NCBI GenBank assembly: GCA_016281805.1
Contig: JAEEJJ010000071.1
Coordinates: forward strand, 1 to 46,434
Length of the DNA stretch: 46,434 bases
Source of the DNA: Clostridiales bacterium
Lineage (GTDB): Bacteria > Bacillota > Clostridia > Oscillospirales > UBA644
Direction: 5' to 3'
How positions within the stretch are numbered: the first letter of the stretch is position 1; the number at the start of each line of letters is the position of its first letter. Shown here piece by piece: positions 4,498-31,505 of the stretch. The position numbers were made by a program, and so were the translations under genes. Under the pieces are notes generated by a model that worked only from the letters and a program-made list of their open reading frames with translations, made no database searches and was not told where the DNA came from.

Positions 4498-4536
4498 AAA
4501 GTGCAGTTAAAAATTACACTTATCTCGGAGGACAGA

Positions 4537-5763
4537 ATGGAGTACATCAAAAGAGATCTGGAGAGAAAGTTTCTCCACATGAGTGAGTCATTCAAGGCCG
4601 TGATGGTTGTAGGCGCAAGGCAGGTCGGCAAGTCCACCATGCTGAGGCATCTCGCAGAAGGTCAGAACAGGACATACGTTTCAATGGACGATACTCAGCT
4701 TCGCTCGCTTGCCCAGGCGGAGCCGAGACTCTTTCTGCAAACATACCGTCCGCCTATTCTGATCGATGAAGTTCAGAAGGCGCCCGAGCTTTTCGAAGAA
4801 ATAAAGATCATATGCGACTCGAGCGACGAACGCGGACAGTTCTGGCTGACGGGATCTCAGAGCAAGAAGCTTGTGAAGGGTGCGGGCGATTCACTCGCCG
4901 GACGTCTGTGCGTCCTGAAGATGTACAGCCTTTCCGCAAGAGAGAAACTGGGTATCAGTCCGGATGAAGATCTGGATTTCTCACTCCCGTCGCTTCTTTC
5001 AAGGAAACGGCTGTTTCCCTCCAACAATATTCTGACCACGTTTGACAACATCTGGCGCGGCGGTCTTCCAGACGTTCAGGGAAAAGACGAGGAGCAGCTC
5101 GGAGAATATTATAACTCCTACATTGAAACATACCTTATGAGAGACGCTGTTGACGACTATGCCATTACAGACACCGAAGGATTCCGCAAGTTCTTAAGGG
5201 CCTGTGCCGCGTTTTCCGGCCAGCTTGTCAACTACAACGATCTGGGTCTGTCCGCCGGTGTATCCGGCGTAACAGCAAAAGAGTGGGTCAAAGTGCTGCA
5301 GTCAATGGGCATCGTCTTCTTACTGGAACCGTATTCGTCAAACGAACTCAAACGTCTTGTTAAAACGCCGAAGCTGTATTTCTGCGACACCGGTTTCTGT
5401 GCATATCTTTCCTCGTGGACGACACGTGACGTCCTTATGAACGGAGCCGCAAGCGGACACTATTACGAAAACTACGTGATCGCCGAACTGCTCCGGCACT
5501 ATGCATACGGCAGGAACAAGGTCAATCTGAATTTTTATCGAGACAGCAAAATGAAGGAGATCGACCTCATTATCGAGGAGGCGGGAATCCTGCATCCTGT
5601 CGAAATCAAAAAGTCCGCGTCGCCTGACAAGAGCGCTGTCAAATCGTTCCCGGTTCTGAAAGAGGGAGAACGCACGGTCGGAAACGGTGCGGTATTCTGC
5701 ATGTCTGATGCTGTTCTTCCGATCACAGAAACGAATTACATTGTTCCGTCTAATATAATCTGA
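4537..5763 (+). CDS. AAA-family ATPase with DUF4143-type C-terminal domain (AAA_14/DUF4143 family)
   Basis: Walker A is GARQVGKST and Walker B is PILIDEVQ. The C-terminal LYFCDTGFCAYL motif is typical of DUF4143 proteins. The track ORF starts at a GTG at 4501, but the ATG at 4537 has a GGAGGA RBS. Confidence 0.8.
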   Translation: MEYIKRDLERKFLHMSESFKAVMVVGARQVGKSTMLRHLAEGQNRTYVSMDDTQLRSLAQAEPRLFLQTYRPPILIDEVQKAPELFEEIKIICDSSDERGQFWLTGSQSKKLVKGAGDSLAGRLCVLKMYSLSAREKLGISPDEDLDFSLPSLLSRKRLFPSNNILTTFDNIWRGGLPDVQGKDEEQLGEYYNSYIETYLMRDAVDDYAITDTEGFRKFLRACAAFSGQLVNYNDLGLSAGVSGVTAKEWVKVLQSMGIVFLLEPYSSNELKRLVKTPKLYFCDTGFCAYLSSWTTRDVLMNGAASGHYYENYVIAELLRHYAYGRNKVNLNFYRDSKMKEIDLIIEEAGILHPVEIKKSASPDKSAVKSFPVLKEGERTVGNGAVFCMSDAVLPITETNYIVPSNII

Positions 5764-6799: not shown

Positions 6800-6985
6800 T
6801 TATCTTTTGTATCCCATTTTCTCGGTCAGATCGCCGAGACTCTTATCGTACTGGGCTTTAGATATGACTCCGCGTTCAAGAAATTTGTCAAGCACGTCTT
6901 TCTGTTTTTCATAAAGCCGTCTTTTCTTTTCTTCGTTTGACAGCGTAGGCCATATATTATCTTTTTCGTACTCCATTAGGTTCAT
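6800..6985 (-). CDS. Small hypothetical protein (61 aa), translationally coupled to the ImmA-like gene
   Basis: The ATG at 6985 overlaps the ImmA-like stop (ATGA). The sequence is MNLMEYEKDNIWPTLSNEEKKRRLYEKQKDVLDKFLERGVISKAQYDKSLGDLTEKMGYKR. The longer 118-aa track ORF overlaps the upstream gene and is unlikely. Confidence 0.5.
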   Translation of the reverse strand: MNLMEYEKDNIWPTLSNEEKKRRLYEKQKDVLDKFLERGVISKAQYDKSLGDLTEKMGYKR

Positions 6986-7977
6986 CTCTTTATTTTCCTG
7001 TACTTCACAAGTTCGTATCTTTCCGAAGAAGGCTTTCTTTTCCGGAAATACGCAAGATTCAGGCTTTCGTTCAGTCCGCATTTGCGGCACTTCAGCTGTT
7101 GCGTTCCGTGTGTGTTTACGGTGACAGTCGCCATTCTGAAGCCGCACGACGGGCACTTTACGACTCTTGTCTCGTGTCTTTCAGCCTCCCTGCGGGAGCG
7201 GTGAATAAGGTATGTTTTCAGCGGATCCAGTTGTCCGCATCTGCGGTCGTACTCGATGTCCGAGTCATCGAAATCTCCCTCCTGAAGATCCTGTTTTATG
7301 AAGTCGTCGATAGGCTTGTATTCGATAAGTCCCATATCTCTGAGCCTTATTTCAAGAGCCTCCCTCGATACTCCCATTCCGTCCGCCATGCTCTGTATTA
7401 TGATGTGCTCCTCGCTGCTGTACAGAGCGTCTCCGAACTTCGTAAATCCGACACCTCCTGCGAACCGTTCCATTGCCTTGCTTATGTTGAATCCCGGCAT
7501 CAGGAGCGCTGCAGCAAGTCTGTCAGCCCGGTTCTCGAACAAGCTCATTCTTTCTTTCAGTGCAGTTATATCAAAGTCACTGATATTCTTCAACTCTCTC
7601 CGGTACCTTGCAACGGACATTTCCGGGCTCATTCTGTCAAGCAGATAATGAGATACTTCATGCGCCATTGTAAAGCGTTTGCGTCCGCTCAAGGTGGGGT
7701 TCAGGAGCTTTTCGGATATGATAACTGTCTTACGGGGAAAGACAATATCATAAGCCTTGCGACCTCTCACAACAGAAACAGCTGTTTCGCCGTCTCCAAG
7801 AAATCCTTCTACGTCTTTTTCTTTGAAAGTCTCATATCCGATTGTTAAACCGAGATACTCAGCGGCGAAGCCTTCAATATCCACGCAAAGTGAATTATTG
7901 GGATGTTCGGTGTAGAATCGGTCGATAAGAGATTCGCCGAGCTCATCGATCGCTATGTTTGATAAGTGCTGATACAT
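6982..7977 (-). CDS. ImmA/IrrE-family zinc metallopeptidase (anti-repressor protease) with C-terminal zinc-ribbon
   Basis: An HExxH motif is present in FTMAHEVSHYLL. The C-terminal CPSCGF...CRKCG forms a four-Cys ribbon. The gene lies in an operon directly downstream of an S24 LexA-like repressor. Confidence 0.75.
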   Translation of the reverse strand: MYQHLSNIAIDELGESLIDRFYTEHPNNSLCVDIEGFAAEYLGLTIGYETFKEKDVEGFLGDGETAVSVVRGRKAYDIVFPRKTVIISEKLLNPTLSGRKRFTMAHEVSHYLLDRMSPEMSVARYRRELKNISDFDITALKERMSLFENRADRLAAALLMPGFNISKAMERFAGGVGFTKFGDALYSSEEHIIIQSMADGMGVSREALEIRLRDMGLIEYKPIDDFIKQDLQEGDFDDSDIEYDRRCGQLDPLKTYLIHRSRREAERHETRVVKCPSCGFRMATVTVNTHGTQQLKCRKCGLNESLNLAYFRKRKPSSERYELVKYRKIKR

Positions 7978-8243
7978 TCATTATCTCCTCCGTTAGTGTG
8001 ATTCGGAACGACGTACCAACCTGCGTCATCCCTGTAGATATATTTTTCCGCACTACCGATGAGAATCGTGTAGCGAATTCCTTCCAGTCCTTCTACAAGT
8101 GAGCGGTTTGTGTGAAGCACTTTATCGACCGTCCAGCTTTTACCGTCAGACCAGTATATTCTAAGCGGTTTTTCGGCTCCGCTTCTGGACATTCTGCAGT
8201 CCACAGTCACATATAGCTTATTCACCTTTTCAGATACCCTCAC
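7953..8243 (-). CDS. Hypothetical protein (96 aa) between the repressor and the protease
   Basis: The ORF overlaps both neighbours: an ATGA overlap with the upstream stop at 8240-8243 and a 25-nt overlap downstream. It ends in TAG. I recognised no family. Confidence 0.45.
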   Translation of the reverse strand: MRVSEKVNKLYVTVDCRMSRSGAEKPLRIYWSDGKSWTVDKVLHTNRSLVEGLEGIRYTILIGSAEKYIYRDDAGWYVVPNHTNGGDNECISTYQT

Positions 8244-8851
8244 AGTTTTTTAATTACAAACTTCGCGATCCCTTGGATTCTCATACTGTCAAGCAGCAAT
8301 TCTTTCCCAGGATATCTTTCCTCGTTTTCATAGGCGAGTCTCGCCTGGCCTTTTTTATTTGAGCCTTTATACCTTTTCAACGTATTTGCGCCTTCATCAT
8401 CCATGGCGACGACAATGTCATTTTTTTCAGGGAACTGTATATTTTCTACCACAACAGTATCTCCTTCATCGATGCCGGCATCGACCATAGAGTCCCCTTT
8501 CGCTTTCAGTATGTACATATCTCCTTTTCCGAAAATAGACGAAGGGAGTCTTACATACTCAAGTATCTCGGCTTCCTCAAGCTGCGGATCGCCGCATTTT
8601 ACCGCACCGCAGACAGGCGCTGTGCAGTTGCTGTCCGAAATCATGACAGTCCGCTCTGTATTTATATCTCCCGGGGTGTACCTTATCAGCCCTCGTTCGC
8701 TCATTTCCACAAGATATGCATGAACTGTGCTCTTGGAGAGATTGAGGTCATCGGCAATATATTTAATCGAAGGGCTTGTCCCCTCGTTCATCCAGCAGTA
8801 TTCTATTGTTTTAACAATTTTCTTCATTATATCCTGGCTCTTGTGTCTCAT
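8240..8851 (-). CDS. LexA-like repressor (N-terminal winged HTH plus S24 self-cleaving peptidase domain)
   Basis: The S24 signature is GDSMVDAGIDEGDTVVV (Ser) ... NTLKRY (Lys). The N-terminal HTH is IADDLNLSKSTVHAYLVEMSERGLI. The ATG at 8851 has an AGGAGG RBS, and the longer track ORF (to 9025) runs through the promoter. Confidence 0.8.
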   Translation of the reverse strand: MRHKSQDIMKKIVKTIEYCWMNEGTSPSIKYIADDLNLSKSTVHAYLVEMSERGLIRYTPGDINTERTVMISDSNCTAPVCGAVKCGDPQLEEAEILEYVRLPSSIFGKGDMYILKAKGDSMVDAGIDEGDTVVVENIQFPEKNDIVVAMDDEGANTLKRYKGSNKKGQARLAYENEERYPGKELLLDSMRIQGIAKFVIKKL

Positions 8852-8870
8852 AACTGCCTCCTGGCCTATC

Positions 8871-8925
8871 TCGAACGAACCGTTCGGTTTACAAATATTA
8901 TACTGCGCTTTTTCCCGTTTGTCAA
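8871..8925 (-). promoter_or_regulatory. Consensus sigma-70 promoter plus palindromic operator for the LexA-like operon
   Basis: On the minus strand there is TTGACA (8925-8920), a 17-nt spacer, then TATAAT (8902-8897). The palindrome CGAAC-N-GTTCG (8876-8886, within TCGAACGAACCGTTCGG) follows between the -10 box and the RBS. Confidence 0.7.
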
Positions 8926-8935
8926 TAGTTTTCAT

Positions 8936-8964
8936 CAAAAATGGTGTCGCCTGTAAGCGACACC
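8936..8964 (-). terminator. Rho-independent terminator closing the WYL/dynamin/HerA/nuclease operon
   Basis: GGTGTCGC (8943-8950) pairs with GCGACACC (8957-8964) around a 6-nt loop. On the minus strand the hairpin is followed by ATTTTTGATG. It lies 95 nt downstream of the stop at 9059. Confidence 0.7.
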
Positions 8965-9058
8965 TATGAGGTAATCTACATATTGTGCATTTGAGAGTGC
9001 AATCTTTACAACATATAGTTGTCACCGAGGGATTGCTTCCTTGAAGTGCATTCAGGCA

Positions 9059-9421
9059 TTAAAGTATTATGTCTTGACTTCCTACTTCTTTTAACTTCCC
9101 CTGTTTATATACTACTGCGATACCATGCTCTGCGTCAAATTTATACCTGCACATAATTGCCACTCGACAGTCTCTTTTAACAAAAATGCTCTCCGGTATA
9201 ACATATTTGAAGATGTTTGTTATCTTGTCGGAACCTATCTCTCTCTTGTTCTTTTTCAAACAATACTGCTCGACCGTATCCTTTGATGATTCAATCAAAT
9301 TACGGTTGGCTACAAATTCCTTAAGCGCTTCTTTTTGTTCTTCAATAATCTCTTCTCCAATGTAGCAATCATATACTACCTTTAGGTTGAAATCTCTTCC
9401 CCATATTCTTGTTTTAAACAT
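9059..9421 (-). CDS. Putative cognate immunity protein of the upstream nuclease (120 aa)
   Basis: The ATG at 9421 overlaps the nuclease stop (ATGTTTAA) and has a GGAGGTGG RBS. The product is small and cytoplasmic (MFKTRIWGRDFNLKVVYDCYIGEEIIEEQKEALKEF...). Position and size fit the immunity genes that follow polymorphic-toxin nucleases. Confidence 0.5.
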   Translation of the reverse strand: MFKTRIWGRDFNLKVVYDCYIGEEIIEEQKEALKEFVANRNLIESSKDTVEQYCLKKNKREIGSDKITNIFKYVIPESIFVKRDCRVAIMCRYKFDAEHGIAVVYKQGKLKEVGSQDIIL

Positions 9422-10298
9422 CAAAGCCACCTCCATAATTTGATCCCAGCGCTTTTTTACATTCTGATACTCCACCGGAATGTCCAAAAAAGTCGTGAAT
9501 ATCCCTTGATATCATTTGACAGGTTTTTCGATCAATGCATTCATGCCAAGTCATATTGTGATTCCTCCTGTAATCTGCCACGTCACGCGCTGTCCAATCC
9601 GATCGGCCGTCTTTTTTTGCGTCAGCCCATTTTTGAGCACATTCCGTATCAGCTTTCTCAAAATTTCCAGTTATTCCATCTGATATATTGCTGTATCGAT
9701 TCTCGGTCATGTCAATCTCTACTGTTTCTTCTGCACATTTATCAAAGTTCGGAATTGCGTCCTGATAATCTATGCCCTCGATATCATATTCCGATAATTT
9801 TTCTATGGCTTTTGAACCACTTTCTGTTTCTTGATTAGGCCGATAACAGGATTCACCTCTTATTCCTTCCCATGTTCCTCGATCTCCTCCAACGGGGGTT
9901 TGAGCCAAACGTTCTTTATATGAACTTTGATACCCTTCCTCCAAAACCTCTACATTCCCATTGGAATCAACATAGTATTTCCCGCCGTTTGAAGTAAATT
10001 CTGTTTCTGGTATTAATTCTCCATCCTTCTTAAACGGATTGCCCCTGTCGTCGGTTTCATATGAGTGACCATCTTTGATAAATGTTGATCTAGCCTCCAA
10101 CTGTTGGCCACTCATGTTAGAAATGCCATTGTCAAATGATTCCGAATCGGCCAAGGATTCAATTTCAGATTCAGATTCAGATAACTCCTCAAAAAAGCTT
10201 TGCAAATCCTCAATTACACTAATTGGTATTTGACATTCCTCTATGCTGATAGCCACTTCCTGAGCTGCCTCGATAATCTCCGCAATTGCCTCAATCAT
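9414..10298 (-). CDS. HNH/EndoVII-fold nuclease, GH-E/WHH-like toxin domain at the C-terminus, acidic helical N-terminus
   Basis: The C-terminal pattern is GTWEGIRGESCYRP...IEGIDYQDAIPNFDKCAEETVEIDMTENR...NFEKAD...MTWHECIDRKTCQMISRDIHDFFGHSGGVSE. It matches my memory of the TWHH...H...GH.GG..E signature of GH-E/WHH polymorphic-toxin nucleases. I saw no signal peptide or LXG/WXG region. Confidence 0.6.
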   Translation of the reverse strand: MIEAIAEIIEAAQEVAISIEECQIPISVIEDLQSFFEELSESESEIESLADSESFDNGISNMSGQQLEARSTFIKDGHSYETDDRGNPFKKDGELIPETEFTSNGGKYYVDSNGNVEVLEEGYQSSYKERLAQTPVGGDRGTWEGIRGESCYRPNQETESGSKAIEKLSEYDIEGIDYQDAIPNFDKCAEETVEIDMTENRYSNISDGITGNFEKADTECAQKWADAKKDGRSDWTARDVADYRRNHNMTWHECIDRKTCQMISRDIHDFFGHSGGVSECKKALGSNYGGGFDV

Positions 10299-13170
10299 GC
10301 GTTGTCAGCTCCTTTTTGATGTCTGAAAATTCTTCTGCCTTTAGAAGCGAAAGACCGCTAAAGACGGCAGCAAGATAAGCTGATGCAATCTTTAGCTCCT
10401 TCGGGGTTAATTGCCCACATTCTTTTGTTATTTCTTCTTGAATGCTCTTCAAATAACTCCCGTTCTTATCTTTTTTAACATTGAGGTTTAAGTTTGGATA
10501 CAACAAATAAAACGATTTGGCTTTTTCATCTTCACGGATTGTGTGTCCCTTGAACATTTGGGCCATCATAGTCTTTATTTGTGCCGGAATATTCGTTCTT
10601 CCGATTAACTTCAAATCAACCTTGATGAACTCATTTGGTCTCAAAAGAACGTCGCGCACCATTGTCCTCGCGTCATCTTCATTTGCGAGAAGATTGATGT
10701 CATTAGCAACGATGTATGGCTTCTTTTCGTTATCGGAGAATTCGTAAACTTTACACAATACCGGCTCAATCCAATCGTTTTGATATACTGCAGCGACTCC
10801 AAGTTCAAGTTTGGCCAACTCTTCAATCTGTTCGTCATCTAACCCTGCAGCTTTGCCGGCCAGCTCGCGATCAGATAAATCCGGAAGTCTATGGATGATC
10901 TTAGTATTAGTATTTCGTATTATTGCCATATCGAGCAAGCCCGGAGCTTGATCTGCTATTATAAAGCCTTCACCAAATGCTCTCAGCTCAGCGATTGAAT
11001 TTGTGAGCATTTCCACCGATTTTCCCAGTAAGTTTGCGCCCTCGCTGGTTTGTTCAGTAGAAGTCCTCTTTAATACATTGTGAGCTTCTTCCAATACCGT
11101 AATGTGCTTAAGGAACTTGTTGTCCGGACTGTTGTTGGATAGTCTGTATTCCTGCAACTTCATTACCAAAAGTCCCATGATCAATGATCTTGTTTCGGTT
11201 GATCCTACTCGGCTTAAATCGACAATGACCTTTGAATCAAAGAGCTCGTTATCTGATATTTCATTCGCAGAGAATATTTGTCCGTTTATCCCATTTGTAA
11301 GAGATCGTATCCTTGTAACAAGAGCGCCTGTATAGTCACTCTTATTCTCGGCAGAATAGTCACTGCTATGCAGTACTTGTCTTATCTGGTATAAGACATC
11401 TGTAAATGTGGGGAAAAGTGTGGCTTCAAAACGATTCTCAGACAATCTCATATCCCAGCCTGCCGATTCATATGCTTTAATGACAGCATCTTTAAGAAGG
11501 GCCGGCATTGCGGCATACATCGGCCAGCATACATTAAACAGTTCCACCAAACGGTCAATATGCTCATTGACAGAAATATTATCAGGAAATGAGAACGGAT
11601 TAATCCTTAGAAGATCTGTTATCTTAGGATTGGTTCCATATACTTTTACATCTTCATCGCCGCCGAAAACACTTTTGTACTCGCCTTTTGCAGGTTCGAT
11701 AACAAGAAAAGGTACTTTTGCTTTTTTCAGAATTTGAAAGACTGTATTAGTCTTTCCTGATCCTGTTGAACCTGTGATAAAAACATGAGATGCAAGACTC
11801 TTTTTATCCAGAGATACCGGCGTATTATCTGCCTGTCTCATATGATAAATCTGCCCGATTTCCAGCGGGTCTATTGAGTGATTATCATAGGTGCTAATAT
11901 TCCTGCCGAACCTGGCGCATTTAAATACCGGAAATCCCGGAACGGATTTTTGAGGAAAGCTTAAAGACCTGGCAAGCTCGGCCCCTGAAATCACAGCTGT
12001 GGCAGTAACTCTATTCTCGTTGTTGCCTGGGCTAACAAATACAGGATGACGCAAATACCTTAAATAATCTAGAATAGCGGCTACCTGTTCTTCTGCATCT
12101 AATTCTTGACCATTCCAAATGTTAATCGATGATTGTTCAGCAAAAGAATCTCGTCCCTGTGTCAAAGACATGAACATGTGGGCAACTTCGTTTGTTGTTG
12201 CAAGATCAGGAGAAATAATATATGCAGCAAAACTCCACAAACCCAATGCGGCAGATTCCTCAAGACGTTCCATTTGCTTCTCAATCACATCTAGAGTATG
12301 CTTCACCTTATAGTCGGTAACATCTACTGCTAATCCGGAATCCGTTCCTGTTGTCTTCCCCCAGGAATGTCCTGCAAGTATTAAACTCCAATTCCAGTTC
12401 TTTTGTTTTGCCTCGCTGATTGAAATGCTTCTGGATTCACTCGCATATGGACTGAGAAGAGAATAGTTCTGATAGAGTTTTTCCTTTTCAAATTTTAGTT
12501 TATCATAGTTCAACGCCTCGCCCATAATAACCAGCGTATATTCGGTATCTGTGCTCTTGGGCCTTATACCATCCAGCAGTTTCTCAATTCCTTGCGTTGA
12601 ATAATCTTCGGAGAACTCCGTAGCAATATTTGAGACAATTCCAAGTGAGTTTTTGTGCGCAGATGAATACTTTGAACTAATCTGACTAAGCAGTGAAGAC
12701 CCGGTATCAGAATCGGTATATATTTCTCCGCAAGATGAACCCGGGAAATTCCCCTTGAAAGCATCTTTAAGTCTTTCCGCTTCTTTAATAGTTCTTTCTG
12801 AGCTGCCGCCGGAATTACCAATCGCAAGTCCAATTTCACACACATTTTGCTTCCTGTGTATTACAAGAGCTACGCTACAGCCCGAATTGGCAAGGACATG
12901 ATAAACAGACTTTAAACAATCTGTCATTTGTTCCTTTTCGTTCTCCACAAATTTGGATATTTCAAAATAGGCGACAGAATCCGCGACGCTGTTTTTGTTA
13001 TTATACGGACTTACTCTATATTCCTTGGAAATTTTAGGCAAAAAGGATCTAAAGACCTCATCTGAACACCTATTGATGAATTGATCCAAGCTTTTATTGG
13101 CGGCCTCAATCTCACGAATAGATGGTTCGGTATACGCCTGTATGTTTTCTTCTTTTTTCGGGCCCATCAT
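10291..13170 (-). CDS. HerA/FtsK-superfamily (DUF87-like) P-loop ATPase with a large unassigned N-terminal domain of about 450 aa
   Basis: Walker A is ITGSTGSGKTNT, followed by FLVIEPAKGEY. Walker B is HITVLEEAHNVL (the EEAH typical of HerA/DUF87), and IIADQAPG follows. The ATG overlaps the upstream stop (ATGA) and has an AGGAGG RBS. Confidence 0.7.
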   Translation of the reverse strand: MMGPKKEENIQAYTEPSIREIEAANKSLDQFINRCSDEVFRSFLPKISKEYRVSPYNNKNSVADSVAYFEISKFVENEKEQMTDCLKSVYHVLANSGCSVALVIHRKQNVCEIGLAIGNSGGSSERTIKEAERLKDAFKGNFPGSSCGEIYTDSDTGSSLLSQISSKYSSAHKNSLGIVSNIATEFSEDYSTQGIEKLLDGIRPKSTDTEYTLVIMGEALNYDKLKFEKEKLYQNYSLLSPYASESRSISISEAKQKNWNWSLILAGHSWGKTTGTDSGLAVDVTDYKVKHTLDVIEKQMERLEESAALGLWSFAAYIISPDLATTNEVAHMFMSLTQGRDSFAEQSSINIWNGQELDAEEQVAAILDYLRYLRHPVFVSPGNNENRVTATAVISGAELARSLSFPQKSVPGFPVFKCARFGRNISTYDNHSIDPLEIGQIYHMRQADNTPVSLDKKSLASHVFITGSTGSGKTNTVFQILKKAKVPFLVIEPAKGEYKSVFGGDEDVKVYGTNPKITDLLRINPFSFPDNISVNEHIDRLVELFNVCWPMYAAMPALLKDAVIKAYESAGWDMRLSENRFEATLFPTFTDVLYQIRQVLHSSDYSAENKSDYTGALVTRIRSLTNGINGQIFSANEISDNELFDSKVIVDLSRVGSTETRSLIMGLLVMKLQEYRLSNNSPDNKFLKHITVLEEAHNVLKRTSTEQTSEGANLLGKSVEMLTNSIAELRAFGEGFIIADQAPGLLDMAIIRNTNTKIIHRLPDLSDRELAGKAAGLDDEQIEELAKLELGVAAVYQNDWIEPVLCKVYEFSDNEKKPYIVANDINLLANEDDARTMVRDVLLRPNEFIKVDLKLIGRTNIPAQIKTMMAQMFKGHTIREDEKAKSFYLLYPNLNLNVKKDKNGSYLKSIQEEITKECGQLTPKELKIASAYLAAVFSGLSLLKAEEFSDIKKELTTHD

Positions 13171-13508
13171 GATTTACCTCCTGCAAGAATGACTATTATG
13201 GTTATCAGTGTTGCTGCTAAAGCTACACCTCCGATGATCAGAACAGCTTTTTTTCTCAGAGTGCTCTTTTTATCATATTTTATTTCCGCCATCCTTATCA
13301 AAGACTGTTTGTTGTAAATTCCAATTCTGGCATTTGACAGCAACTCTTCGTAGTACGCTGGATCAGTCCTTTCATTAACATCATATATGACATAGAGATC
13401 GTTAGAATTTTTTTCAATCATATCTAGTCGTTTGAACACTTCTTCACTTGATATGGTACCAGAGTCGATCCTGCTGATTAATCTTAGAATTCTTTCGTCC
13501 TTATTCAT
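13167..13508 (-). CDS. Small tail-anchored membrane protein (113 aa)
   Basis: The ATG at 13508 overlaps the end of the dynamin-like gene by 8 nt (ATGAATAA) and has a GGAGG RBS. One C-terminal hydrophobic helix is present (AVLIIGGVALAATLITIIVILAG). Confidence 0.55.
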   Translation of the reverse strand: MNKDERILRLISRIDSGTISSEEVFKRLDMIEKNSNDLYVIYDVNERTDPAYYEELLSNARIGIYNKQSLIRMAEIKYDKKSTLRKKAVLIIGGVALAATLITIIVILAGGKS

Positions 13509-15867
13509 TTTTTGCCTCCATATCGTTTGGAAGAACACTTCCCAATACGGCTTTAACATTAGACAAATTATTAAGCCGTCTCTCCATATCTTCAATTTTA
13601 ACTATCATCGTTTTAATTTTCTCATCGAGGTCACTCAAAATGGCATTTTCTTTATTCAAAGTGGCGTCAATCGATTTCTTATATTCTATGCTCCAACCTG
13701 CAATTTGTTTGCTGTATTTGATTGCCGGTTCTCTAATACATTGATTGGCAAAAGATCCAATTTTGTTATAGGTTCCCCCTATTGTTTCTTTGAAAATTCT
13801 TGTGTAATTCCGGATAACCCTTTCTTTTGCCCAATCAAAAGGCAACTTCCCTAAGAACGATAATTTGATCCTTTCAAACAAGCCAACTGGGACATCTTTG
13901 AGTTGAGGTCCGCTTGTGTTTTCAGCGAAAATGCTTTCGAGTTCTTTTTGAGCACCATCTGATATCTTATTGTATTCTTCTGTAACGCATTGCTTAACGC
14001 TTTCCATGTAACGTCTAATTAATTCGACATATTTAAGCTCGATTTTGCTTTTAATATCTTTGATATGGGCATCGTAAAGATTAGCTTGACAGTGCTCAGT
14101 CATAGCTTTTTCAAACTTGTCCATGGCATTGTCTTTATCTTTATATTTATCCCAAGTTGCTCTGACTAATGATTCAATTCCTGTGCAATAGTTTTCAAGA
14201 GCAGCATTGAATTCTTTTTTCACGTCCGAGATAACAGCATTAACTGCAGGAAGGGGCACCTCGTCGATTTTCTTTATGAGTTTTGCTCTTACAGCCTGTT
14301 GTTCCTTTTCTTTCTTCTTCTTATCTTTTTCAAGTTGAATCTTTGCTTCTTGAAGTTTTTTGTCGGCAAGTTCCAACGCAGTCAAAAGATACCCTTGGCC
14401 TTTGGTGCATTTTTTGTACTCTGCAAACCTGTATGCGTAATAATTGATTTCTGTTTCCAATGATGGAATACCGCTTGCGAATAATAGTGAGGGAATCGAA
14501 GCTCTCCGCTCATTGGAGATTTTTCTTCCACAAGGTGTTTCATTATATGAAGGAGGCATAAGCTCCGTTAAATCGGTCAACTTTTTTTCATATATCTGTC
14601 TATATGCCTGATCAATCCATTTTCCTTTGTCAATCTTTTTTTCTCCAATGGCTGCAATTGGTGAAACAAACATAATGGTCGGATGATTTAACCATTGTTT
14701 TATTTTTTCAGGCATTTCTTCTGATAATTGCTGTTCAACCAGCAGATCGGCCATTGAAATAGCTATTATACAATTCTGAAGAGAAAATCCGGATTCTTTA
14801 TTTTCCAACAATGTGCGAAGATCATTAGCGTCATTCGAATCTAAAGAGTTTCTTCCCATAACAAAAATCGGGAGAGCGTTAGTCTGTTTATCCATTAGTT
14901 CTTCAAGATTCTGTCTGTGTATTCTTTGAGCTTCATCACCATTATTGCTGCCAGGAGTATCAATGAACACAAATGAGTATCGTTCAGTGTCTAGTTCGGA
15001 GTTTCTGAACGGCACGGATATGGTTACGCTGTCTTTGATTTCTGAAATATGGCTGTTTCCACCTGTTTCTATGTTTAGGTTTTCAATGATTTGATGCAGA
15101 ATCTGTTCCTCGGACTCAAGATGATAAGTCTGATTGAACAGTTCATCGATTAGTACTTCGTCTTCATCTTCATCGCACTGAACAGAATGATTATTTCCAG
15201 TCAGAGAAATGGTATAGTGAGCACCTTTATACTCGAAACTTAAGGAATATGACTGATCATTTCTTATATAAACATTCTTTGCTGTTGTGGAATTGGCATG
15301 GCTTGGAAGGATCTCATAACCGATTAATGCGTTCACAAGTGCAGACTTCCCAACACTATAATTACCAATAACGCATACTGGGATCTCTGCCCTTACAGCA
15401 TCTTGGAATTTTTCAATAGAATGACCAATGATTACCCGTTCATCATCTTTATCTAAATCGTCATTCTCGATATAGTCGATAAATTCACTCTTGATCTTTT
15501 CATATGAATCCCTAATAGTCTGCAATGCATCCGACGATGAGGAATATCTGTCGACTAAATCACAAACAATTCCCTTTGATTTTGGATTCTCACTGTGAGC
15601 AATTGCGGCCTTTAAGACGGTAAAATCTTCTGCCGTCCCCAGAAAATCTATAGTCAGGCTTCCTGAAGTATTGAAATACTTATTTATAATATCAAGAATC
15701 TCTTCAACACAGTTTTCAAAAATGCATCTGTTTCGTTGAAATTTTAGTAATTGTGAATCGGATTCTATCTCTGCCAAGAATGGCTCTTCGGAGCCATCTT
15801 TAGTTAGTTCCTGTCTAAAATGAATTCTGTTCGTGTAAGGATTGTACGATATTTCAATTCTTTTCAT
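13501..15867 (-). CDS. Bacterial dynamin-like GTPase (788 aa from the ATG at 15867)
   Basis: G1 is GNYSVGKSALVNALIG, G3 is FIDTPGSNNG, and G4 is degenerate (ISMAD). A long helical and coiled-coil stalk follows (LQEAKIQLEKDKKKKEKEQQAVRAK). The ATG at 15867 has a GAGGA RBS, and the track alternative is a TTG at 15918 overlapping the WYL gene stop. Confidence 0.75.
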   Translation of the reverse strand: MKRIEISYNPYTNRIHFRQELTKDGSEEPFLAEIESDSQLLKFQRNRCIFENCVEEILDIINKYFNTSGSLTIDFLGTAEDFTVLKAAIAHSENPKSKGIVCDLVDRYSSSSDALQTIRDSYEKIKSEFIDYIENDDLDKDDERVIIGHSIEKFQDAVRAEIPVCVIGNYSVGKSALVNALIGYEILPSHANSTTAKNVYIRNDQSYSLSFEYKGAHYTISLTGNNHSVQCDEDEDEVLIDELFNQTYHLESEEQILHQIIENLNIETGGNSHISEIKDSVTISVPFRNSELDTERYSFVFIDTPGSNNGDEAQRIHRQNLEELMDKQTNALPIFVMGRNSLDSNDANDLRTLLENKESGFSLQNCIIAISMADLLVEQQLSEEMPEKIKQWLNHPTIMFVSPIAAIGEKKIDKGKWIDQAYRQIYEKKLTDLTELMPPSYNETPCGRKISNERRASIPSLLFASGIPSLETEINYYAYRFAEYKKCTKGQGYLLTALELADKKLQEAKIQLEKDKKKKEKEQQAVRAKLIKKIDEVPLPAVNAVISDVKKEFNAALENYCTGIESLVRATWDKYKDKDNAMDKFEKAMTEHCQANLYDAHIKDIKSKIELKYVELIRRYMESVKQCVTEEYNKISDGAQKELESIFAENTSGPQLKDVPVGLFERIKLSFLGKLPFDWAKERVIRNYTRIFKETIGGTYNKIGSFANQCIREPAIKYSKQIAGWSIEYKKSIDATLNKENAILSDLDEKIKTMIVKIEDMERRLNNLSNVKAVLGSVLPNDMEAKNE

Positions 15868-15914
15868 AAGAACATCCTCAATTATTCTTGAAAGTTTTCT
15901 TTTGACCGAACAAG

Positions 15915-16925
15915 TCAAAACGGCAGATCGCTGTCATCCTGTTTCTTTTCGAGAGCGTAATATGCCTTTGTTACGAAATCTACGTACTTGTCTTTTACGT
16001 CTTCCGGACTCTTGATCTTTACCAGCCCGCCAAAGCCAACAATCCAGGAGAACAGAACATTGTTGACGGCAATTTCAACAACGGCCCGGAAGTTCTCCAT
16101 ATCGCAAGCGTATGTAGTGACATCCTCGCCGAAACGGTCGATAATGGCATCCATTACTGAGTTGTTGCATATCAGTTCAACGATCCGTCGCTCGGAGCTG
16201 AACATGTGATACATCGTGTTGATGTACTTATCGAGATCAAATTCTTTCGGCATGGGAATGGCATTTTCTTCAAGGATTTTCGGGTTAGAAACAATCCTGT
16301 CAACCCGATAGTTCATGACCTTTTTGTGCTTTTCATACCATCCGACAATGTAGTAATAGTCTCCATTCCAAACAAGTCTCCACGGACTGAATTTGTACCA
16401 GTATCCGTCAAATCGTGGTTTGCGTTCCTTTTTGACATTGTACTCGAAATACTGGAAGGTAATCTGCTTCTTCTGGGTAATCGCTTCATTTATAGCGTCA
16501 ATGATGCCCATGATTTTCTTGTTTGAGCCCTTAATTCTGCGTTCAACAGAAACATTACGTGTCATTCGTTCTGCCGCATTTTGACCTGCAAGCTTGCTGA
16601 TTTTTTCTATCAGCTTTTTGCTTTGGCTTGCCGGAATAAACCGTGCTGAAGCAACGGCATCGATCATAAGACGAAGCTCTGAGTCAAGAAAGTAACGATC
16701 AAGAACATTGTACTTATTTTGCGTTGATTTCACGCATTGGATATCCATGCCTAGACTCTTGAGCATCTCGATATCATAACCTACCGTCGTTCTGTGAGTC
16801 GGCATTTTGTACTCGTCTTCAAGGATCTTCACAAGTTGAGCCGTAGTCAAACTATGCTCGTAATCGGTTCGCTCGTATAGTATTTTAGCCAGTATCCAAG
16901 GACGAAGTTTAGCATCGTTATCCAT
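15915..16925 (-). CDS. WYL-domain transcriptional regulator (wHTH plus WYL plus C-terminal extension; BrxR/CapW-like architecture)
   Basis: The N-terminal wHTH is LTTAQLVKILEDEYKMPTHRTTVGYDIEMLKSLG. The central WYL-type motif is FSPWRLVWNGDYYYIVGWYEKHKKVMNYRVDRI. It is the first gene of the operon. Confidence 0.8.
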   Translation of the reverse strand: MDNDAKLRPWILAKILYERTDYEHSLTTAQLVKILEDEYKMPTHRTTVGYDIEMLKSLGMDIQCVKSTQNKYNVLDRYFLDSELRLMIDAVASARFIPASQSKKLIEKISKLAGQNAAERMTRNVSVERRIKGSNKKIMGIIDAINEAITQKKQITFQYFEYNVKKERKPRFDGYWYKFSPWRLVWNGDYYYIVGWYEKHKKVMNYRVDRIVSNPKILEENAIPMPKEFDLDKYINTMYHMFSSERRIVELICNNSVMDAIIDRFGEDVTTYACDMENFRAVVEIAVNNVLFSWIVGFGGLVKIKSPEDVKDKYVDFVTKAYYALEKKQDDSDLPF

Positions 16926-16957: not shown

Positions 16958-17383
16958 TCATTGTCCTGCTACAATCTGATGTTCCAATTGTTCCATTGTT
17001 TTTTGAAAGTTGTGTTTAATATCGCATTCCCATACAACTATCACTTGCCAGCCGAGCTCGGTAAGAGCGGTTTGATTTCGGTAGTCGTTCTCTACATTTC
17101 TTTTAAACTTTTCAAGCCAGAATTCCGTGTTTGTTGATGGTGTTGTAGTATATTTGCATCCGTCATGCCGATGCCAAAAACAACCATTTACAAAAACAAC
17201 TGTTTTGTACTTCGGAAGAACTATGTCCGGAGTCCCAGGATATCTTCGATCGTTTGCACGATAACGAAAACCCCTTGAAAATAGATATTTTCTGATTTTT
17301 TCTTCAGTTTTTGTGTTTTTTCCTTTTATTCGGGACATATTGTAACTACGAGTTTCCTTACTATGAACATCCATATCAACCAT
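16958..17383 (-). CDS. vsr: Very-short-patch repair endonuclease (Vsr)
   Basis: The sequences TKTEEKIRKYLFSRGFRYR, PGTPDIVLPKYKTVVFVNGCFWHRH and EFWLEKFKRNVENDYR are classic Vsr. The gene overlaps the dcm stop by 8 nt. Confidence 0.92.
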   Translation of the reverse strand: MVDMDVHSKETRSYNMSRIKGKNTKTEEKIRKYLFSRGFRYRANDRRYPGTPDIVLPKYKTVVFVNGCFWHRHDGCKYTTTPSTNTEFWLEKFKRNVENDYRNQTALTELGWQVIVVWECDIKHNFQKTMEQLEHQIVAGQ

Positions 17384-18647
17384 TCACCTCTTCAAGCTTG
17401 TAAAGCTGATAAAAGAAACCCTCAAGCAGTTTAACTGGGATACTGTTTCCGGCCATTCTGATTATTTTATCGCGAGGGAAAAGGCAACTATGAACTTTGA
17501 CAATTGGATTATTTTCAATTAGTCGCTCATAGTCTCCATCAGTGAATCCCATAAACAATAGACACTCTCTAGGTGTTAAATAACGAAATTTTCCTCTTCC
17601 TTCAATCCCACAGTCAAAATAAATGTTTCCCGAGTTAGGATTGCGATCCTGTTTTGTAGTTATAGTTCGTATATAAGATTCAGTTGTAATCTCATTGGCT
17701 TCGTTGACGATTTTAGGGTTTTCGTTCCATATTTTCCTTCTTGATTCGGTATCATTTGGCGTACATTCAACCGCCTCTTGCCAAAGCTTTGAACCTCTCT
17801 TTTTTGGCAGCCTAAGGAGGTCCTTGACCTTCATATCCTCAAAATACGGCGAGTCGATATAATCATCGACGATACTTTTCGGCGTCATTGAATTCAGTTT
17901 CTTAACAATTGCGTCAGCTTTATCACTGTCATCTCCGACCCAAACGCTTATCATAAGTAATCTTGGACGATTCTGTGGAATGCCAAATTCTTTTGCGTTC
18001 AAAGGAAAGTACCTGCTTTTGTAACCCAAAGCCTCAAGTTCAATTATCCACGTATTGAAATTACCTATATGCCTTGAGGAGAGTAATGTCGGGACATTTT
18101 CCATAACAAGATATCTTGGAAGAATACGGCCTTCCTCTTTCATTTCACCAAGTATTCTTCCGACTTGCCAAAGCAAACTTGAACGGCTTCCGGAAAACCG
18201 GTCTATTCCCTTGTTGTATCCGTGAAAAGCGCCAACATTTGAAAGATCCTGGCACGGAAATGAATATGTTAGAATATCAGTTCCGTCTGGCATATCGCAC
18301 CCTTTTACTTTGCTTACATCGACAAGATTGTTTGTCCGAACAATTGCAGAATAAGTCCTTCGAAGGACTTCAGGCCCATATGCATGGATAGTCTTGCTAT
18401 CCATGGCTGCTTTTCCATCGTTGCTTAAAGTGTAGTCTTTGAGCCTGTTAAAAATCTCATCGTCAGATAATTCATCAACAGTTGAGTCAAGCAGAGTGTT
18501 ATTGTGAATAGCATCGTATGCAATAAAAGCATGAATATCCCATTCACATGTCGCCTGCACATTAATTTTTAACCCAATATTCTTTAATGCCTTAGCCTGA
18601 CTGCCAATACCGCTGAATAGCTCAACTACGTTGTAAACTTCTTTCAT
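17376..18647 (-). CDS. dcm: DNA (cytosine-5)-methyltransferase
   Basis: Motif I is LFSGIGS, motif IV is SFPCQDLS, motif VI is ENVPTL and motif X is GNSIPV. Confidence 0.92.
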   Translation of the reverse strand: MKEVYNVVELFSGIGSQAKALKNIGLKINVQATCEWDIHAFIAYDAIHNNTLLDSTVDELSDDEIFNRLKDYTLSNDGKAAMDSKTIHAYGPEVLRRTYSAIVRTNNLVDVSKVKGCDMPDGTDILTYSFPCQDLSNVGAFHGYNKGIDRFSGSRSSLLWQVGRILGEMKEEGRILPRYLVMENVPTLLSSRHIGNFNTWIIELEALGYKSRYFPLNAKEFGIPQNRPRLLMISVWVGDDSDKADAIVKKLNSMTPKSIVDDYIDSPYFEDMKVKDLLRLPKKRGSKLWQEAVECTPNDTESRRKIWNENPKIVNEANEITTESYIRTITTKQDRNPNSGNIYFDCGIEGRGKFRYLTPRECLLFMGFTDGDYERLIENNPIVKVHSCLFPRDKIIRMAGNSIPVKLLEGFFYQLYKLEEVNG

Positions 18648-18656
18648 ATATCACCA

Positions 18657-20753
18657 TTAGACCAGAACGCCTGCATTATCAAGCTTTGTTCTGATTTTCC
18701 AAATGAAATTTGCTTGTTTTTCTGAAGGAACTTTTAATCCCTTCCCGAAACTGATTGCCAGTTTTAAAAGATCCATTTCCTGGGGCGAGAGAATACGCCG
18801 TTTAGTTCCTTCAGCAAGCAGGTTCTCCCAGTACTCGCTGCCAAGATTATAGATCTCAACCATACAGTTGACCTTATTTTCCAGCTTCTTTTCTTTGATT
18901 TCGCCTCTTATCTTTTCATCGATAATATCCTTTGAAACGATATCGGCGAGAAACTCACGATCAAGACTTATGGAAAGAGCCTGATATTTCTTCCACGTCT
19001 CTTCTTTTTTGCAGTACTCGGTTACTATGACGCCGCTCGATTTCTGAATGAACTCGTTGGTAATATACGCTATTTTTTCAATCTGCTTGTTCAGGGAAGG
19101 ATATAGTTCCTGTTTCTTCCATATCTGGCCGTAATCGAGCGTATATCCCCTTGGTATGGAGCTGATCAGTTTTGATATCGTATATGGCACTATATTTAGT
19201 TTGTATCCACCGACATTGTACCAGTTGGCCTTACTGACAATCCTGTCAGTGGCTCTGAACAGGATCACGTAGCAGATTGCCAGCTTGTAAAACTCATCAT
19301 TGAAGTACTCCGGAGTGTTTTGGTATTTTCCGTCGATATATTCGGCAAAAAACGACATGCATTTTTCGGAACCTTTGCTGACCACATCAGGACGAAGTAA
19401 ATCTGCACAAGTGAAGTATTTGGCCAGTTCCTCTTTTTTGACGACCTGACTCTTCGGGTACTTTCTGACATATGCGTCTTTTTCGCTTTTCTTCGTGAAT
19501 TTGAATTGTTCCTGTTCGTATTTTCCTCTAGATCTTTCATAATACCAGAAAGTATTATTGACAAAATCACCGTGCGCTGGCGCCTGATTCTTCTTTGACA
19601 AAGCCTCAAAGGTGCGATGGAAAGGATGGTTGGAGAACAGATCCGAATCTTTAACCTTGTTCTGGCTGTTTGCATATTTGGAAATGTTCTGAATCATTGT
19701 ATCGTAATCATCGTCTTTGACTACGGTCAATTTCATGGGTACAAAAATGTTATCAAGGGGCAATTTGTCCTTGAGTACGGCTGATGTTAGTGAGGCGGTG
19801 GTTTGGCCACCGTTAATAATTTGCAGATCCTCCATGTTGACAATTGTTCTTCCGTCATCGCTTACAACAACTTTGGAGGCTGTGCATGCGATACCATTGT
19901 TATATGTAAAGAACTTAGTGGGTTCTTTCCGGATTGTTTCCCGAATTCCTTTGTTTATCTTACCTCTGTTGCTCAGGAATGCGCGAACATTTCCCTCCAA
20001 CAGCCTGGATCCATGCTCATAATAGATTTCATGTAAAAACTTCCCAGGAACGATAGCCAGATAAGCATCATAATCCAGGTTCCCGGACATCTCAGCTTTA
20101 ATGCAGGGGATCCCATTCACGCCATATTTTTCGACATCAATAATGATCGGTTCGCGGTCGCGCCCGGATTCATAGAGGTCATAAAACCTTTTTATGCTCC
20201 AAACGTTTAATTCGACCTTTTTGCCGCAGAAATCATCGCTTCGGAAAGAAGTAACCTTATCACTAAGGGCTTTGTTTGTAACAATGAAGAGCTTTATCTG
20301 GTTGATCGAATCATCGTTTTCCAGATCAACATAATCGATCTTCATTCTTTTTCCTATACTTCGACCTACAATCAGCATTTCATCGGTGATGTCAAAATAA
20401 TCTCCGAGCTTTTCGTCGTAGGCTTCCTGAAGAAAGTTAAGCATACGGACTTTGATGGTCTCTATTTCTGTTCTTGTAAGAGTGGCATCCGCAACATCCT
20501 TATAGTCATTTGCAATCAAAACAACGGACTTGTCAGAGTCATCAAACCCAAATGCATCGAAAGACATAATACGCCCGTTACGGCATTTCTTTTGAGTTGG
20601 TTTAATCCTCGGATCAACCAGTTCCCCCATACTTGTAAGCTTATCCAGCGTATCAGTCAGAAAGTACTCATCAGGAAGAGTTCCTTCTATCTGGGCATTA
20701 AGCCGTATGTCTTCAAGATATTCCTGCCTGTATTCATCAAAACTGGTCGCCAT
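18657..20753 (-). CDS. AIPR-family (abortive-infection phage-resistance) protein
   Basis: The 698-aa protein has the central IINGGQTT motif typical of AIPR proteins. An AAGGAG RBS is present, and the gene belongs to the GHKL/Z1/PD(D/E)XK/Dcm cluster. Confidence 0.75.
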   Translation of the reverse strand: MATSFDEYRQEYLEDIRLNAQIEGTLPDEYFLTDTLDKLTSMGELVDPRIKPTQKKCRNGRIMSFDAFGFDDSDKSVVLIANDYKDVADATLTRTEIETIKVRMLNFLQEAYDEKLGDYFDITDEMLIVGRSIGKRMKIDYVDLENDDSINQIKLFIVTNKALSDKVTSFRSDDFCGKKVELNVWSIKRFYDLYESGRDREPIIIDVEKYGVNGIPCIKAEMSGNLDYDAYLAIVPGKFLHEIYYEHGSRLLEGNVRAFLSNRGKINKGIRETIRKEPTKFFTYNNGIACTASKVVVSDDGRTIVNMEDLQIINGGQTTASLTSAVLKDKLPLDNIFVPMKLTVVKDDDYDTMIQNISKYANSQNKVKDSDLFSNHPFHRTFEALSKKNQAPAHGDFVNNTFWYYERSRGKYEQEQFKFTKKSEKDAYVRKYPKSQVVKKEELAKYFTCADLLRPDVVSKGSEKCMSFFAEYIDGKYQNTPEYFNDEFYKLAICYVILFRATDRIVSKANWYNVGGYKLNIVPYTISKLISSIPRGYTLDYGQIWKKQELYPSLNKQIEKIAYITNEFIQKSSGVIVTEYCKKEETWKKYQALSISLDREFLADIVSKDIIDEKIRGEIKEKKLENKVNCMVEIYNLGSEYWENLLAEGTKRRILSPQEMDLLKLAISFGKGLKVPSEKQANFIWKIRTKLDNAGVLV

Positions 20754-20757
20754 AGTC

Positions 20758-31500: not shown

Positions 31501-31505
31501 TGATA

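Follow-up and report, generated by a model that had tools for sequence, protein, structure and literature searches.

A conserved module of a dynamin-like GTPase, a VirB4-like ATPase and an exchangeable nuclease and immunity gene pair, tentatively read as an anti-invader device

We analysed a 46,434-nucleotide (nt) stretch of DNA from a Clostridiales bacterium (contig JAEEJJ010000071.1, positions 1 to 46,434; hereafter the window), in which six consecutive genes encode a WYL-domain regulator, a dynamin-like GTPase, a small tail-anchored membrane protein, an ATPase, a nuclease and an immunity-like protein. Four of them, the genes for the GTPase, the ATPase, the toxin and the immunity protein, make up the functional unit, and the WYL regulator and the membrane protein are clade-specific accessories; this follows from the conserved order of the four genes and from a reverse test with the GTPase, together with the presence of the two accessory genes in only a minority of loci. 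We rate the module as an undescribed system, or at least as a new variant of the polymorphic-toxin or HerA-effector systems.

Conservation and distribution of the four-gene unit

Iterative searches were performed with the six window proteins, and relatives of the ATPase number in the thousands. In a species scan with one genome per species, at least 585 species carried an ATPase relative, and the genome loci studied are the best-scoring 80 of these. Open reading frames (ORFs) were called in 90 related loci with a simple caller of our own, and the locus counts given below rest on 86 distinct ATPases. The dynamin-like gene stands immediately upstream of the ATPase gene in 67 of the 72 loci with sufficient upstream DNA, and a toxin-sized gene followed by a small gene stands immediately downstream in 73 of 79, so the co-conservation across genomes that an earlier, sequence-only reading of the window had proposed to check is borne out. 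That reading had also proposed all six genes as one candidate system. The module is indeed inherited together, but its conserved unit comprises four genes: only 12 of 72 loci (about 17%) have a WYL gene upstream, and the small tail-anchored protein is confined to the single clade with short ATPases, longer tail-anchored versions occurring in variants from Escherichia coli and Lactococcus. In the reverse test, three dynamin homologs with only 27-38% identity were each followed directly by the genes for a DUF87 ATPase, a nuclease and an immunity protein.

Such an arrangement goes well beyond what chance would give. Defence islands do juxtapose unrelated genes, and the WYL gene and the small membrane protein are not universal, as would be expected of chance neighbours in a gene-dense island that have no joint function. 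However, the four-gene order, in which start and stop codons overlap, is kept in over 80 loci spread across several phyla, and the flanks change from one locus to the next (102 flanking proteins from around 40 related loci matched 131 Pfam families). The conserved order refutes this explanation, which we regard as barely credible.

Among the at least 585 species, carriers belong mostly to Lachnospiraceae, Ruminococcus and Oscillospiraceae. Others are Streptococcus (S. salivarius, S. parasanguinis, S. suis), Bifidobacterium, Collinsella and Treponema, and single metagenome-assembled genomes (MAGs) of Alistipes, Elusimicrobium and Thermoguttaceae. Occurrences in such odd phyla could arise through MAG contamination, but the Treponema and E. 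coli cases are complete replicons. Monoderms and diderms (Treponema and E. coli, for instance) carry the same four genes. Many loci lie on chromosomes and have no mobility gene in the surrounding 8-10 kb, and other relatives reside on conjugative plasmids of Lactococcus and E. coli or on islands with serine recombinases. At the DNA level the E. coli plasmid variant is present in 1 of 5426 complete E. coli genomes. Phage carriage is marginal, with two short unannotated fragments in a phage collection and five IMG/VR contigs. With carriers that include common streptococci, bifidobacteria and Collinsella as well as dairy and E. coli plasmids, the module is not rare, yet curated resources label its proteins only 'ATP-binding protein', 'serine-rich protein' or 'dynamin family protein'.

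Two variants are carried by plasmids. On the IncI plasmid of E. coli TW10590 (locus L097, NZ_CP035852, 3758-12157) the genes encode two dynamins (324 and 752 amino acids, aa), a 290-aa tail-anchored protein, a 1084-aa ATPase, an LHH nuclease and an SMI1/KNR4 immunity protein. The variant on the conjugative dairy plasmid pF27B of Lactococcus cremoris (locus L096, 1595-12100) lies beside an Abi gene and comprises a WYL gene, two dynamins, a 164-aa protein, a 186-aa protein with a G/A/V-rich C-terminal transmembrane (TM) region, a 1076-aa ATPase, a WHH-like nuclease and an immunity gene; it would offer a convenient experimental model.

Organisation of the operon in the window

An ORF check of the window recovered the six co-directional minus-strand genes at 9059-16925, and the coordinates and junction overlaps quoted in the sequence-only reading were all verified. 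The features of the operon are as follows.

15915-16925, minus strand: WYL-domain transcription regulator, with helix-turn-helix (HTH), WYL and WCX-like regions
13501-15867, minus strand: dynamin-like GTPase, 788 aa, BDLP/mitofusin class; the C-terminal half is a helical stalk
13167-13508, minus strand: small tail-anchored membrane protein, 113 aa; TM helix at 13188-13244
10291-13170, minus strand: ATPase, 959 aa, with VirB4-like N-domain, core and C-terminal tail
11881-13170, minus strand: ATPase N-terminal domain, aa 1-430, VirB4-NTD-like
10741-11880, minus strand: HerA/VirB4-type ATPase core; Walker A at 11749-11772, Walker B at 11080-11097
10294-10740, minus strand: helical tail at the ATPase C-terminus, aa 811-959; candidate receptor of the leader of the toxin
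9414-10298, minus strand: predicted polymorphic toxin, WHH/Colicin-DNase nuclease, 294 aa
10119-10298, minus strand: class-A leader of the toxin, MIEAIAEIIEAAQEVA..., followed by a linker
9453-9764, minus strand: WHH/Colicin-DNase nuclease domain of the toxin
9059-9421, minus strand: predicted immunity protein DUF6985, 120 aa
8934-8964, minus strand: intrinsic terminator, 9-pair stem with 6 GC pairs and a 4-nt loop, then ATTTTTGATG

For the GTPase we prefer the start at ATG 15867 because a ribosome-binding site (RBS), GAGG, is present there, although the ORF can be extended back to TTG 15918; with the preferred start, the gap to the WYL gene is 47 nt. The genes downstream overlap one another, the GTPase and 113-aa genes by ATGAATAA at 13501-13508, the 113-aa and ATPase genes by ATGA at 13167-13170, the ATPase and nuclease genes by ATGATTGA at 10291-10298 and the nuclease and immunity genes by ATGTTTAA at 9414-9421, and a GGAGG-type RBS precedes each downstream start. 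The strong terminator that had been said to close the operon is present as a GC-rich hairpin at 8943-8964, its 9-base-pair stem followed by a T-run.

The motif and domain calls also held, with all motifs at the expected coordinates and Pfam support for every domain. The GTPase carries G1 GNYSVGKS and G3 DTPG, the ATPase Walker A GSTGSGKT and Walker B VLEEAH, the 113-aa protein the TM helix VLIIGGVALAATLITIIVI, and the nuclease TWHE..H..GHSGG. The Pfam E-values are 4e-13 for WYL, 1.3e-16 for Dynamin_N, 3.8e-14 for DUF87, 7.4e-9 for Colicin-DNase, 7.5e-9 for WHH and 7.8e-10 for DUF6985. The regulator additionally matches the PADLOC WYL model (1e-27) and, below cut-off, WCX (3.3e-3); it resembles WYL defence regulators of the BrxR/CapW type in its predicted HTH, WYL and WCX architecture and in the position of its gene directly upstream of the operon.

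Toxins and immunity proteins are exchanged together

The genes following the ATPase are diverse. Among 82 genes at the first position downstream (+1), Pfam assigned 30 to Colicin-DNase/WHH, 19 to Endonuclea_NS_2, 5 to LHH, 1 to Ntox15 and 1 to the DUF6782 peptidases. Less firm classes comprise about 12 weakly HNH-like toxins, 2 weakly NERD-like ones and 2 with a PoNi immunity partner, and a further class of 7 with an EVHHMP motif falls outside the named families. Every classifiable toxin is thus a DNase-type nuclease, from several unrelated families, apart from the one peptidase class; no RNase, NADase, deaminase, lipase, cell-wall or pore-forming toxin was found among the module toxins. Their size is around 170-300 aa. 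The second downstream position (+2, 76 genes) is occupied by classical immunity families: DUF6985 (18), SMI1_KNR4/SUKH (16), YezG-like (15), PoNi (2) and Tdi1 (1).

Homologs of the window toxin have in common with it either the C-terminal nuclease or only the N-terminal part. Two pairs of loci display this exchange between closely related machines. In L071 and L082 the ATPases are 93% and the dynamins 96% identical, and in L056 and L068 82% and 92%; in both pairs the toxin C-terminal domains and the immunity proteins are unrelated, and toxin identity stops abruptly past a common leader of 45-80 residues. The nuclease and its downstream gene, described as a toxin/immunity pair in the sequence-only reading, have the sequence signature of a genuine one, in which the immunity gene is exchanged together with the toxin. 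Three classes of leader were distinguished:

Class A: amphipathic MIEAIA..EVA helix, in the window and the membrane-protein clade
Class B: ..ENFKNIKPE..MT..EA..FW
Class C: FDPDKR[IV] repeats

Around 14 loci carry a second cargo, a 230-aa DUF6782/SprT-like metallopeptidase with its own 98-aa partner, which bears the same leader as the first toxin. No orphan immunity arrays were found beyond second full cassettes. In one clade (L098, 14275-15419) the second cassette encodes an SRA-domain protein, which has a methyl-DNA-binding fold and is a candidate DNA-directed cargo, and a 112-aa partner. In L004 (3870-7589) genes for a 709-aa protein and a 406-aa LHH-nuclease protein and a 119-aa gene lie upstream of the dynamin gene and may represent a second, differently organised toxin set.

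The ATPase tail varies with the toxin leader

To compare the parts of the system, ATPases were cut into N-domain, core and a C-terminal tail of about 150 aa, and pairs of systems were compared at equal core identity. At 75-100% core identity, pairs with the same leader class show a similarity of 53% in the tail and 63% in the N-domain, and pairs with different leader classes 4.7% and 64%, respectively. The Spearman correlation with leader similarity is highest for the tail (0.71 at 75-100% core identity and 0.48 at 65-75%), lower for the N-domain (0.36 and 0.25) and negligible for the toxin C-terminal domain (about 0.15 and about 0). These stratified comparisons resolve the system into three nested layers: the machine, the tail with the leader, and the toxin domain with its immunity protein.

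The ATPase resembles VirB4 in both halves

Across the module the ATPase measures approximately 960-1250 aa, with most relatives near 1200 aa, and its Walker motifs are invariant in 65 homologs. At the sequence level it matches only DUF87 (3.8e-14) and TrwB_AAD_bind (1.9e-6) in Pfam, and no VirB4 family model. The full-length AlphaFold model (predicted local distance difference test, pLDDT, 78) finds its best structural match in TrwK/VirB4 of R388 (2.5e-14), followed by HerA, the DndH C-domain and the VirB4 C-terminal domain. For the N-domain modelled alone with AlphaFold2 (430 residues, pLDDT 84, predicted template modelling score 0.83), a Foldseek search against the PDB returned 12 significant matches, all of them TrwK/VirB4 chains (E-values 2.5e-6 to 1.6e-4, template modelling score around 0.40); the next match, at 7e-3, is an unrelated protein. 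Judging from these models, the enzyme is better described as VirB4-like in both halves, remotely and with a modest template modelling score, than as a canonical HerA with a HAS-barrel. Of the HerA/FtsK-type assignment made previously, the DUF87/HerA-type core stands and the canonical HerA architecture does not.

The N-domain constitutes a discrete family, for which 1.84 billion proteins yielded 642 clusters at 50% identity, almost all of them of proteins 1000-1350 aa long. Its low-confidence loop at aa 248-282 (12325-12429 in the window) has grown to around 190-270 residues in most homologs. The insert is rich in T (18%), S (16%) and G (11.5%), as well as in A and N, with almost no Pro; its ends show alternating beta-like patterns, and K/T/A/V-rich repeats lie inside (long inserts are found, for example, in L026 and L054). 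This S/T-rich insert accounts for the NCBIfam name 'serine-rich protein' given to a subfamily. In Lactococcus the loop holds a hydrophobic G/A/V segment, a hint that the loop may face the membrane and stand in for a separate anchor protein in most relatives. The insert could serve as a membrane contact or a spacer, and its composition and position are suggestive of a transmembrane beta-hairpin or an amphipathic membrane binder. No TM helices were found in the dynamin or the ATPase of most loci.

The GTPase and the small membrane protein

In the GTPase, G1 (15343-15366) and G3 (14950-14961) are both invariant in 62 homologs. The best PDB match of the family profile is the Nostoc BDLP (2j68, 4.7e-13), with mitofusins next; BDLP and the mitofusins are the membrane-fusing and membrane-tethering class of dynamins. 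Some variants of the module, in E. coli and Lactococcus, have two dynamin genes. The 113-aa protein contains one hydrophobic helix (aa 89-107) and has no family match in Pfam, NCBIfam or PADLOC. By analogy, its gene sits where that of VirB3 precedes VirB4. We also considered whether the small protein is fused into the longer dynamins or ATPases of other loci; an iterative search started from it gave free-standing copies only.

Possible functions of the module

We tentatively read the module as an intracellular, membrane-proximal anti-invader device that would act by degrading DNA or by abortive infection. The GTPase and the ATPase would form its machine, linked to the membrane in the window by the small tail-anchored protein. 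The leader may dock the toxin on the ATPase tail, as suggested by its retention while toxin C-terminal domain and immunity gene are swapped, by the co-variation of the tail with leader class and by the second cargo that bears the same leader; the immunity protein would silence the non-specific DNase in the producing cell. The dynamin-like protein would gather at, or respond to, membrane sites disturbed by the entry of phage or conjugative DNA, and the ATPase, with ATP, would free the docked DNase from its immunity protein, feed DNA to the DNase, or both, with the result that the entering DNA is destroyed or the infection is aborted. Where present, the WYL protein would repress the operon until a stress or DNA-damage signal arrives.

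This reading draws on several observations: the restriction of the effectors to DNases of unrelated families and an SprT-like peptidase, the lack of a channel protein and, in most versions, of any TM helix, the occurrence of the same four genes in monoderms and diderms, the absence of orphan immunity arrays, and the presence of WYL genes at some loci and of defence genes around several. HerA-family ATPases are known to partner nuclease effectors, as in HerA-NurA and DUF4297-HerA. Dynamin-like proteins have been implicated in phage defence, namely DynA (PMC8844932) and a two-gene Leo-like system (bioRxiv 10.1101/2022.05.11.491447). Defence neighbours outside the window include CBASS, GmrSD and BREX in Allofournierella, a nearby Wadjet locus and, on dairy plasmids of Lactococcus, an Abi gene. 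Not every locus lies in a defence island, however, and the support from such placement is qualitative only, since the PADLOC flank scan lists models redundantly.

A number of points weigh against an anti-invader role. Several loci lie amid housekeeping genes, with no defence neighbours. Classical immunity families that are swapped with the toxin between near-identical machines are a hallmark of neighbour-directed toxins and rare in known defence systems, and secreted polymorphic toxins are likewise built of a constant leader and a variable C-terminal toxin domain. The fold nearest to that of the modelled ATPase belongs to a secretion ATPase, VirB4, and the co-variation of tail and effector parallels the essC variants of type VIIb secretion. 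Moreover, tail and leader are adjacent in the DNA, and joint inheritance, not contact, could contribute to their correlation. Both functions proposed in the sequence-only reading, a defence logic in which the ATPase licenses the nuclease and, as the alternative, toxin export, are compatible with the data.

The second of these, a new toxin-delivery route for interbacterial antagonism, is the main rival, and we consider it somewhat unlikely. Here the ATPase would recognise the leader, strip off the immunity protein and hand the DNase or peptidase to a dynamin-driven export step, through membrane vesiculation or fusion or through a host channel, and the immunity gene would protect sister cells. 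The polymorphic-toxin architecture and cassette swapping argue for delivery, as do immunity families (SUKH, YezG, PoNi, Tdi1) known from toxins of the type VI and type VII secretion systems (T6SS, T7SS), a VirB4-type fold in either half of the ATPase together with a small membrane protein placed like VirB3, the fit of ATPase tail to leader class, as in substrate-selecting secretion ATPases, and the approximately 14 loci with two leader-tagged cargos, each with its own immunity gene. Dynamin-like proteins have, in addition, been linked to vesicle-borne toxin release (LeoABC, IniA). On the other hand, the module contains no channel-forming or polytopic membrane protein, none is conserved in its vicinity, and in most versions TM helices are absent altogether. 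The cargo is limited to DNases and one peptidase class, unlike the repertoires of T6SS, T7SS and contact-dependent inhibition (CDI), and toxins of 170-300 aa are too small to include receptor-binding or translocation domains. The sharing of the gene set by diderms and monoderms, the lack of orphan immunity arrays, and the WYL genes and defence-island placement at several loci likewise speak against delivery. Its more specific form, in which GTPase and ATPase constitute a new channel-less protein-delivery pathway whose tail selects leader-tagged DNases and peptidases and whose dynamin membrane step carries them to rivals, is in our judgement unlikely.

Maintenance or exclusion by a mobile element appears quite improbable. 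The toxin and immunity genes would then be an addiction cassette, or the machine would exclude rival conjugative DNA at the membrane, with GTPase and ATPase handling element DNA. The window copy is indeed cargo of an integrative conjugative element (ICE), relatives occur on conjugative plasmids and serine-recombinase islands, and the ATPase resembles conjugation ATPases; but addiction requires a toxin and an antitoxin only, not some 1750 aa of conserved NTPases, and the many chromosomal loci lack mobility genes nearby. Immunity proteins of these families are also stable tight binders, not labile antitoxins.

If the anti-invader role is correct, the module would be the first coupling of a dynamin-like GTPase to a VirB4-like motor and the first use of immunity-guarded, swappable DNases as effectors, and it would give direct access to how bacterial dynamins work in immunity. 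If delivery is correct, the module would be a new secretion route shaping competition in human and animal microbiota, and in the channel-less form a kind of polymorphic-toxin secretion system that has so far gone unrecognised, common among Firmicutes and Actinobacteria of the gut, rumen and mouth. Under either reading, the three-layer modularity makes the question of function testable by swapping parts.

The host element and neighbourhood of the window copy

The window is an ICE, and the module is part of its cargo defence island. Genes at 648-2603, 33374-36195, 40561-41913 and 44017-45876 provide a serine recombinase, a type IV secretion system (T4SS) coupling protein, a Toprim/DUF3991 primase, a MobL relaxase and a VirB4-type TraG P-loop ATPase. 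The cargo, at approximately 9-33 kb, has a GC content of 0.36-0.43 versus 0.47-0.53 in the backbone. It consists of the operon described here, Vsr and Dcm, an Mza-like set, McrBC, and an AlwI-like enzyme with two methylases, which bears out the defence island with McrBC and a Z1/AIPR module that had been described next to the operon.

Vsr (16958-17383) and Dcm (17376-18647) are directly followed by the four-gene Mza-like set (18657-25901), composed of AIPR (18657-20753), DUF4420 (20758-21705), Z1 with ResIII (21662-24433) and a MutL-like HATPase_c_3 protein (24423-25901). McrC (25969-27078) lies beside a McrB-like AAA_5 protein of 786 aa (27188-29548), after which come the AlwI-like restriction enzyme (29553-30527) and C5-cytosine methylases at 30439-31572 and 31506-32522. 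Past the operon terminator, a perfect sigma-70 promoter, TTGACA-17-TATAAT (8925-8897, minus strand), precedes a LexA-like S24 repressor (8240-8851), a 96-aa ORF and an ImmA/IrrE M78 peptidase (6982-7977); the region 6982-9025, with repressor and ImmA/IrrE, is probably the SOS-type switch of the ICE. An AAA_14/DUF4143 ATPase is encoded near the module (4501-5763), and the same family flanks a 77%-identical copy in L001-L003 (L001, 4699-6147 and 18636-19865), where a JetABC (Wadjet) locus is found about 6 kb downstream.

Comparison with known systems

The expectation that no named system combines these genes agrees with our searches: PADLOC v2, NCBIfam 20.0 and Pfam hold no model naming the module, and gave only generic or partial matches (LeoA, mad8, HerA, CedD, 'serine-rich protein') far below curated cut-offs. 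A full-text literature search found no paper describing the gene set, which is not mentioned in Zhang 2011, Kaur 2020, Millman 2022 or two lactococcal plasmidome papers; the systems that the plasmidome studies put to the test do not include the Lactococcus plasmid copy. RefSeq names the plasmid copies 'dynamin family protein', 'ATP-binding protein', 'HNH endonuclease' and 'SMI1/KNR4 family protein'.

The module shares with HerA-NurA, SIR2-HerA and DUF4297-HerA a HerA-superfamily hexameric ATPase whose gene adjoins, and is translationally coupled to, that of a DNA- or NAD-destroying effector, and those systems are often found in defence islands. It differs in its N-domain, which appears VirB4-like and not a HAS-barrel, in its effectors, which would be free-standing, immunity-guarded polymorphic DNases, and in the obligatory dynamin-like GTPase. 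Membership in SIR2-HerA or DUF4297-HerA was rejected, as the scores for the NCBIfam models HerA_antiphage (36.9 bits against a cut-off of 800) and HerA_antiphage_2 (18.6 against 850) were far too low and the window effector is a WHH/Colicin-DNase instead of SIR2 or DUF4297; PADLOC HerA models gave partial matches only, the best at 2.9e-16. Assignment to MADS was likewise rejected, since mad8 matches only the ATPase core (2.2e-16) and no other mad model matches any of the six proteins. Eleos (LeoA/LeoBC) and DynA of Bacillus subtilis resemble the module in having a bacterial dynamin-like GTPase in a context of conflict or defence, but Eleos consists of dynamin-like proteins only, whereas the GTPase of the module is tied to an ATPase, a toxin and an immunity protein. 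In the window, which has a single dynamin gene, PADLOC LeoA matches only residues 116-198 (8.4e-7; 83 residues of the P-loop region) and LeoBC gives no match, so that membership in Eleos was discarded.

The machine also resembles VirB4 and VirB3 of the T4SS (TrwK/TrwM of R388). As there, the ATPase appears to be two-part, a VirB4-type N-domain being joined to a RecA-like C-domain of the HerA/VirB4 kind, and the gene just upstream, translationally coupled to that of the ATPase, encodes a small membrane protein; a site of action at the membrane is presumed for both systems. Missing from the module are VirB6, VirB8, VirB1, a coupling protein, a relaxase and a pilin; no polytopic membrane ORF was found in it, nor T4SS channel or scaffold parts among the 25 most frequent flank families (102 genes, around 40 loci), and the T4SS genes of the window ICE lie more than 16 kb away. 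Compared with VirB4, the module ATPase has an extra C-terminal tail and the S/T-rich loop, a dynamin-like partner and substrates with N-terminal leaders.

Type VIIb secretion (LXG toxins; EsaD with EsaG/YezG) also relies on an ATPase of the FtsK/HerA superfamily whose C-terminal region varies with the downstream toxins, and has in common with the module small helical N-terminal targeting regions, Endonuclea_NS_2 toxins, and YezG/DUF600 and SUKH immunity proteins. The module lacks the EssC architecture (FHA domain, TM segments and three ATPase domains), WXG100/LXG proteins, EsaA, EssA and EssB, its toxins are limited to DNases and one peptidase, and it has the dynamin-like protein. We did not retain type VIIb membership, given that LXG/WXG100 had no Pfam match at E<0.1 on the window toxin and were not among the ten families matched by the 82 toxins; none of the 25 most frequent flanking families (131 matched in all) is a T7SS family.

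By its sequence organisation, finally, the module fits the genetic definition of a polymorphic toxin-immunity system. Its machinery of a dynamin-like GTPase and a VirB4-like ATPase lies outside the trafficking modes given in the portion of Zhang et al. 2012 (PMC3482391) covered here, in which the word 'dynamin' does not occur, and it has no orphan cassette arrays. The toxin has no signal peptide and no known secretion domain or apparatus. What the module shares with the polymorphic toxin systems is their gene architecture (PMC3482391): the N-terminal part is constant, the C-terminal toxin domain recombines, and the next gene downstream encodes the immunity protein.

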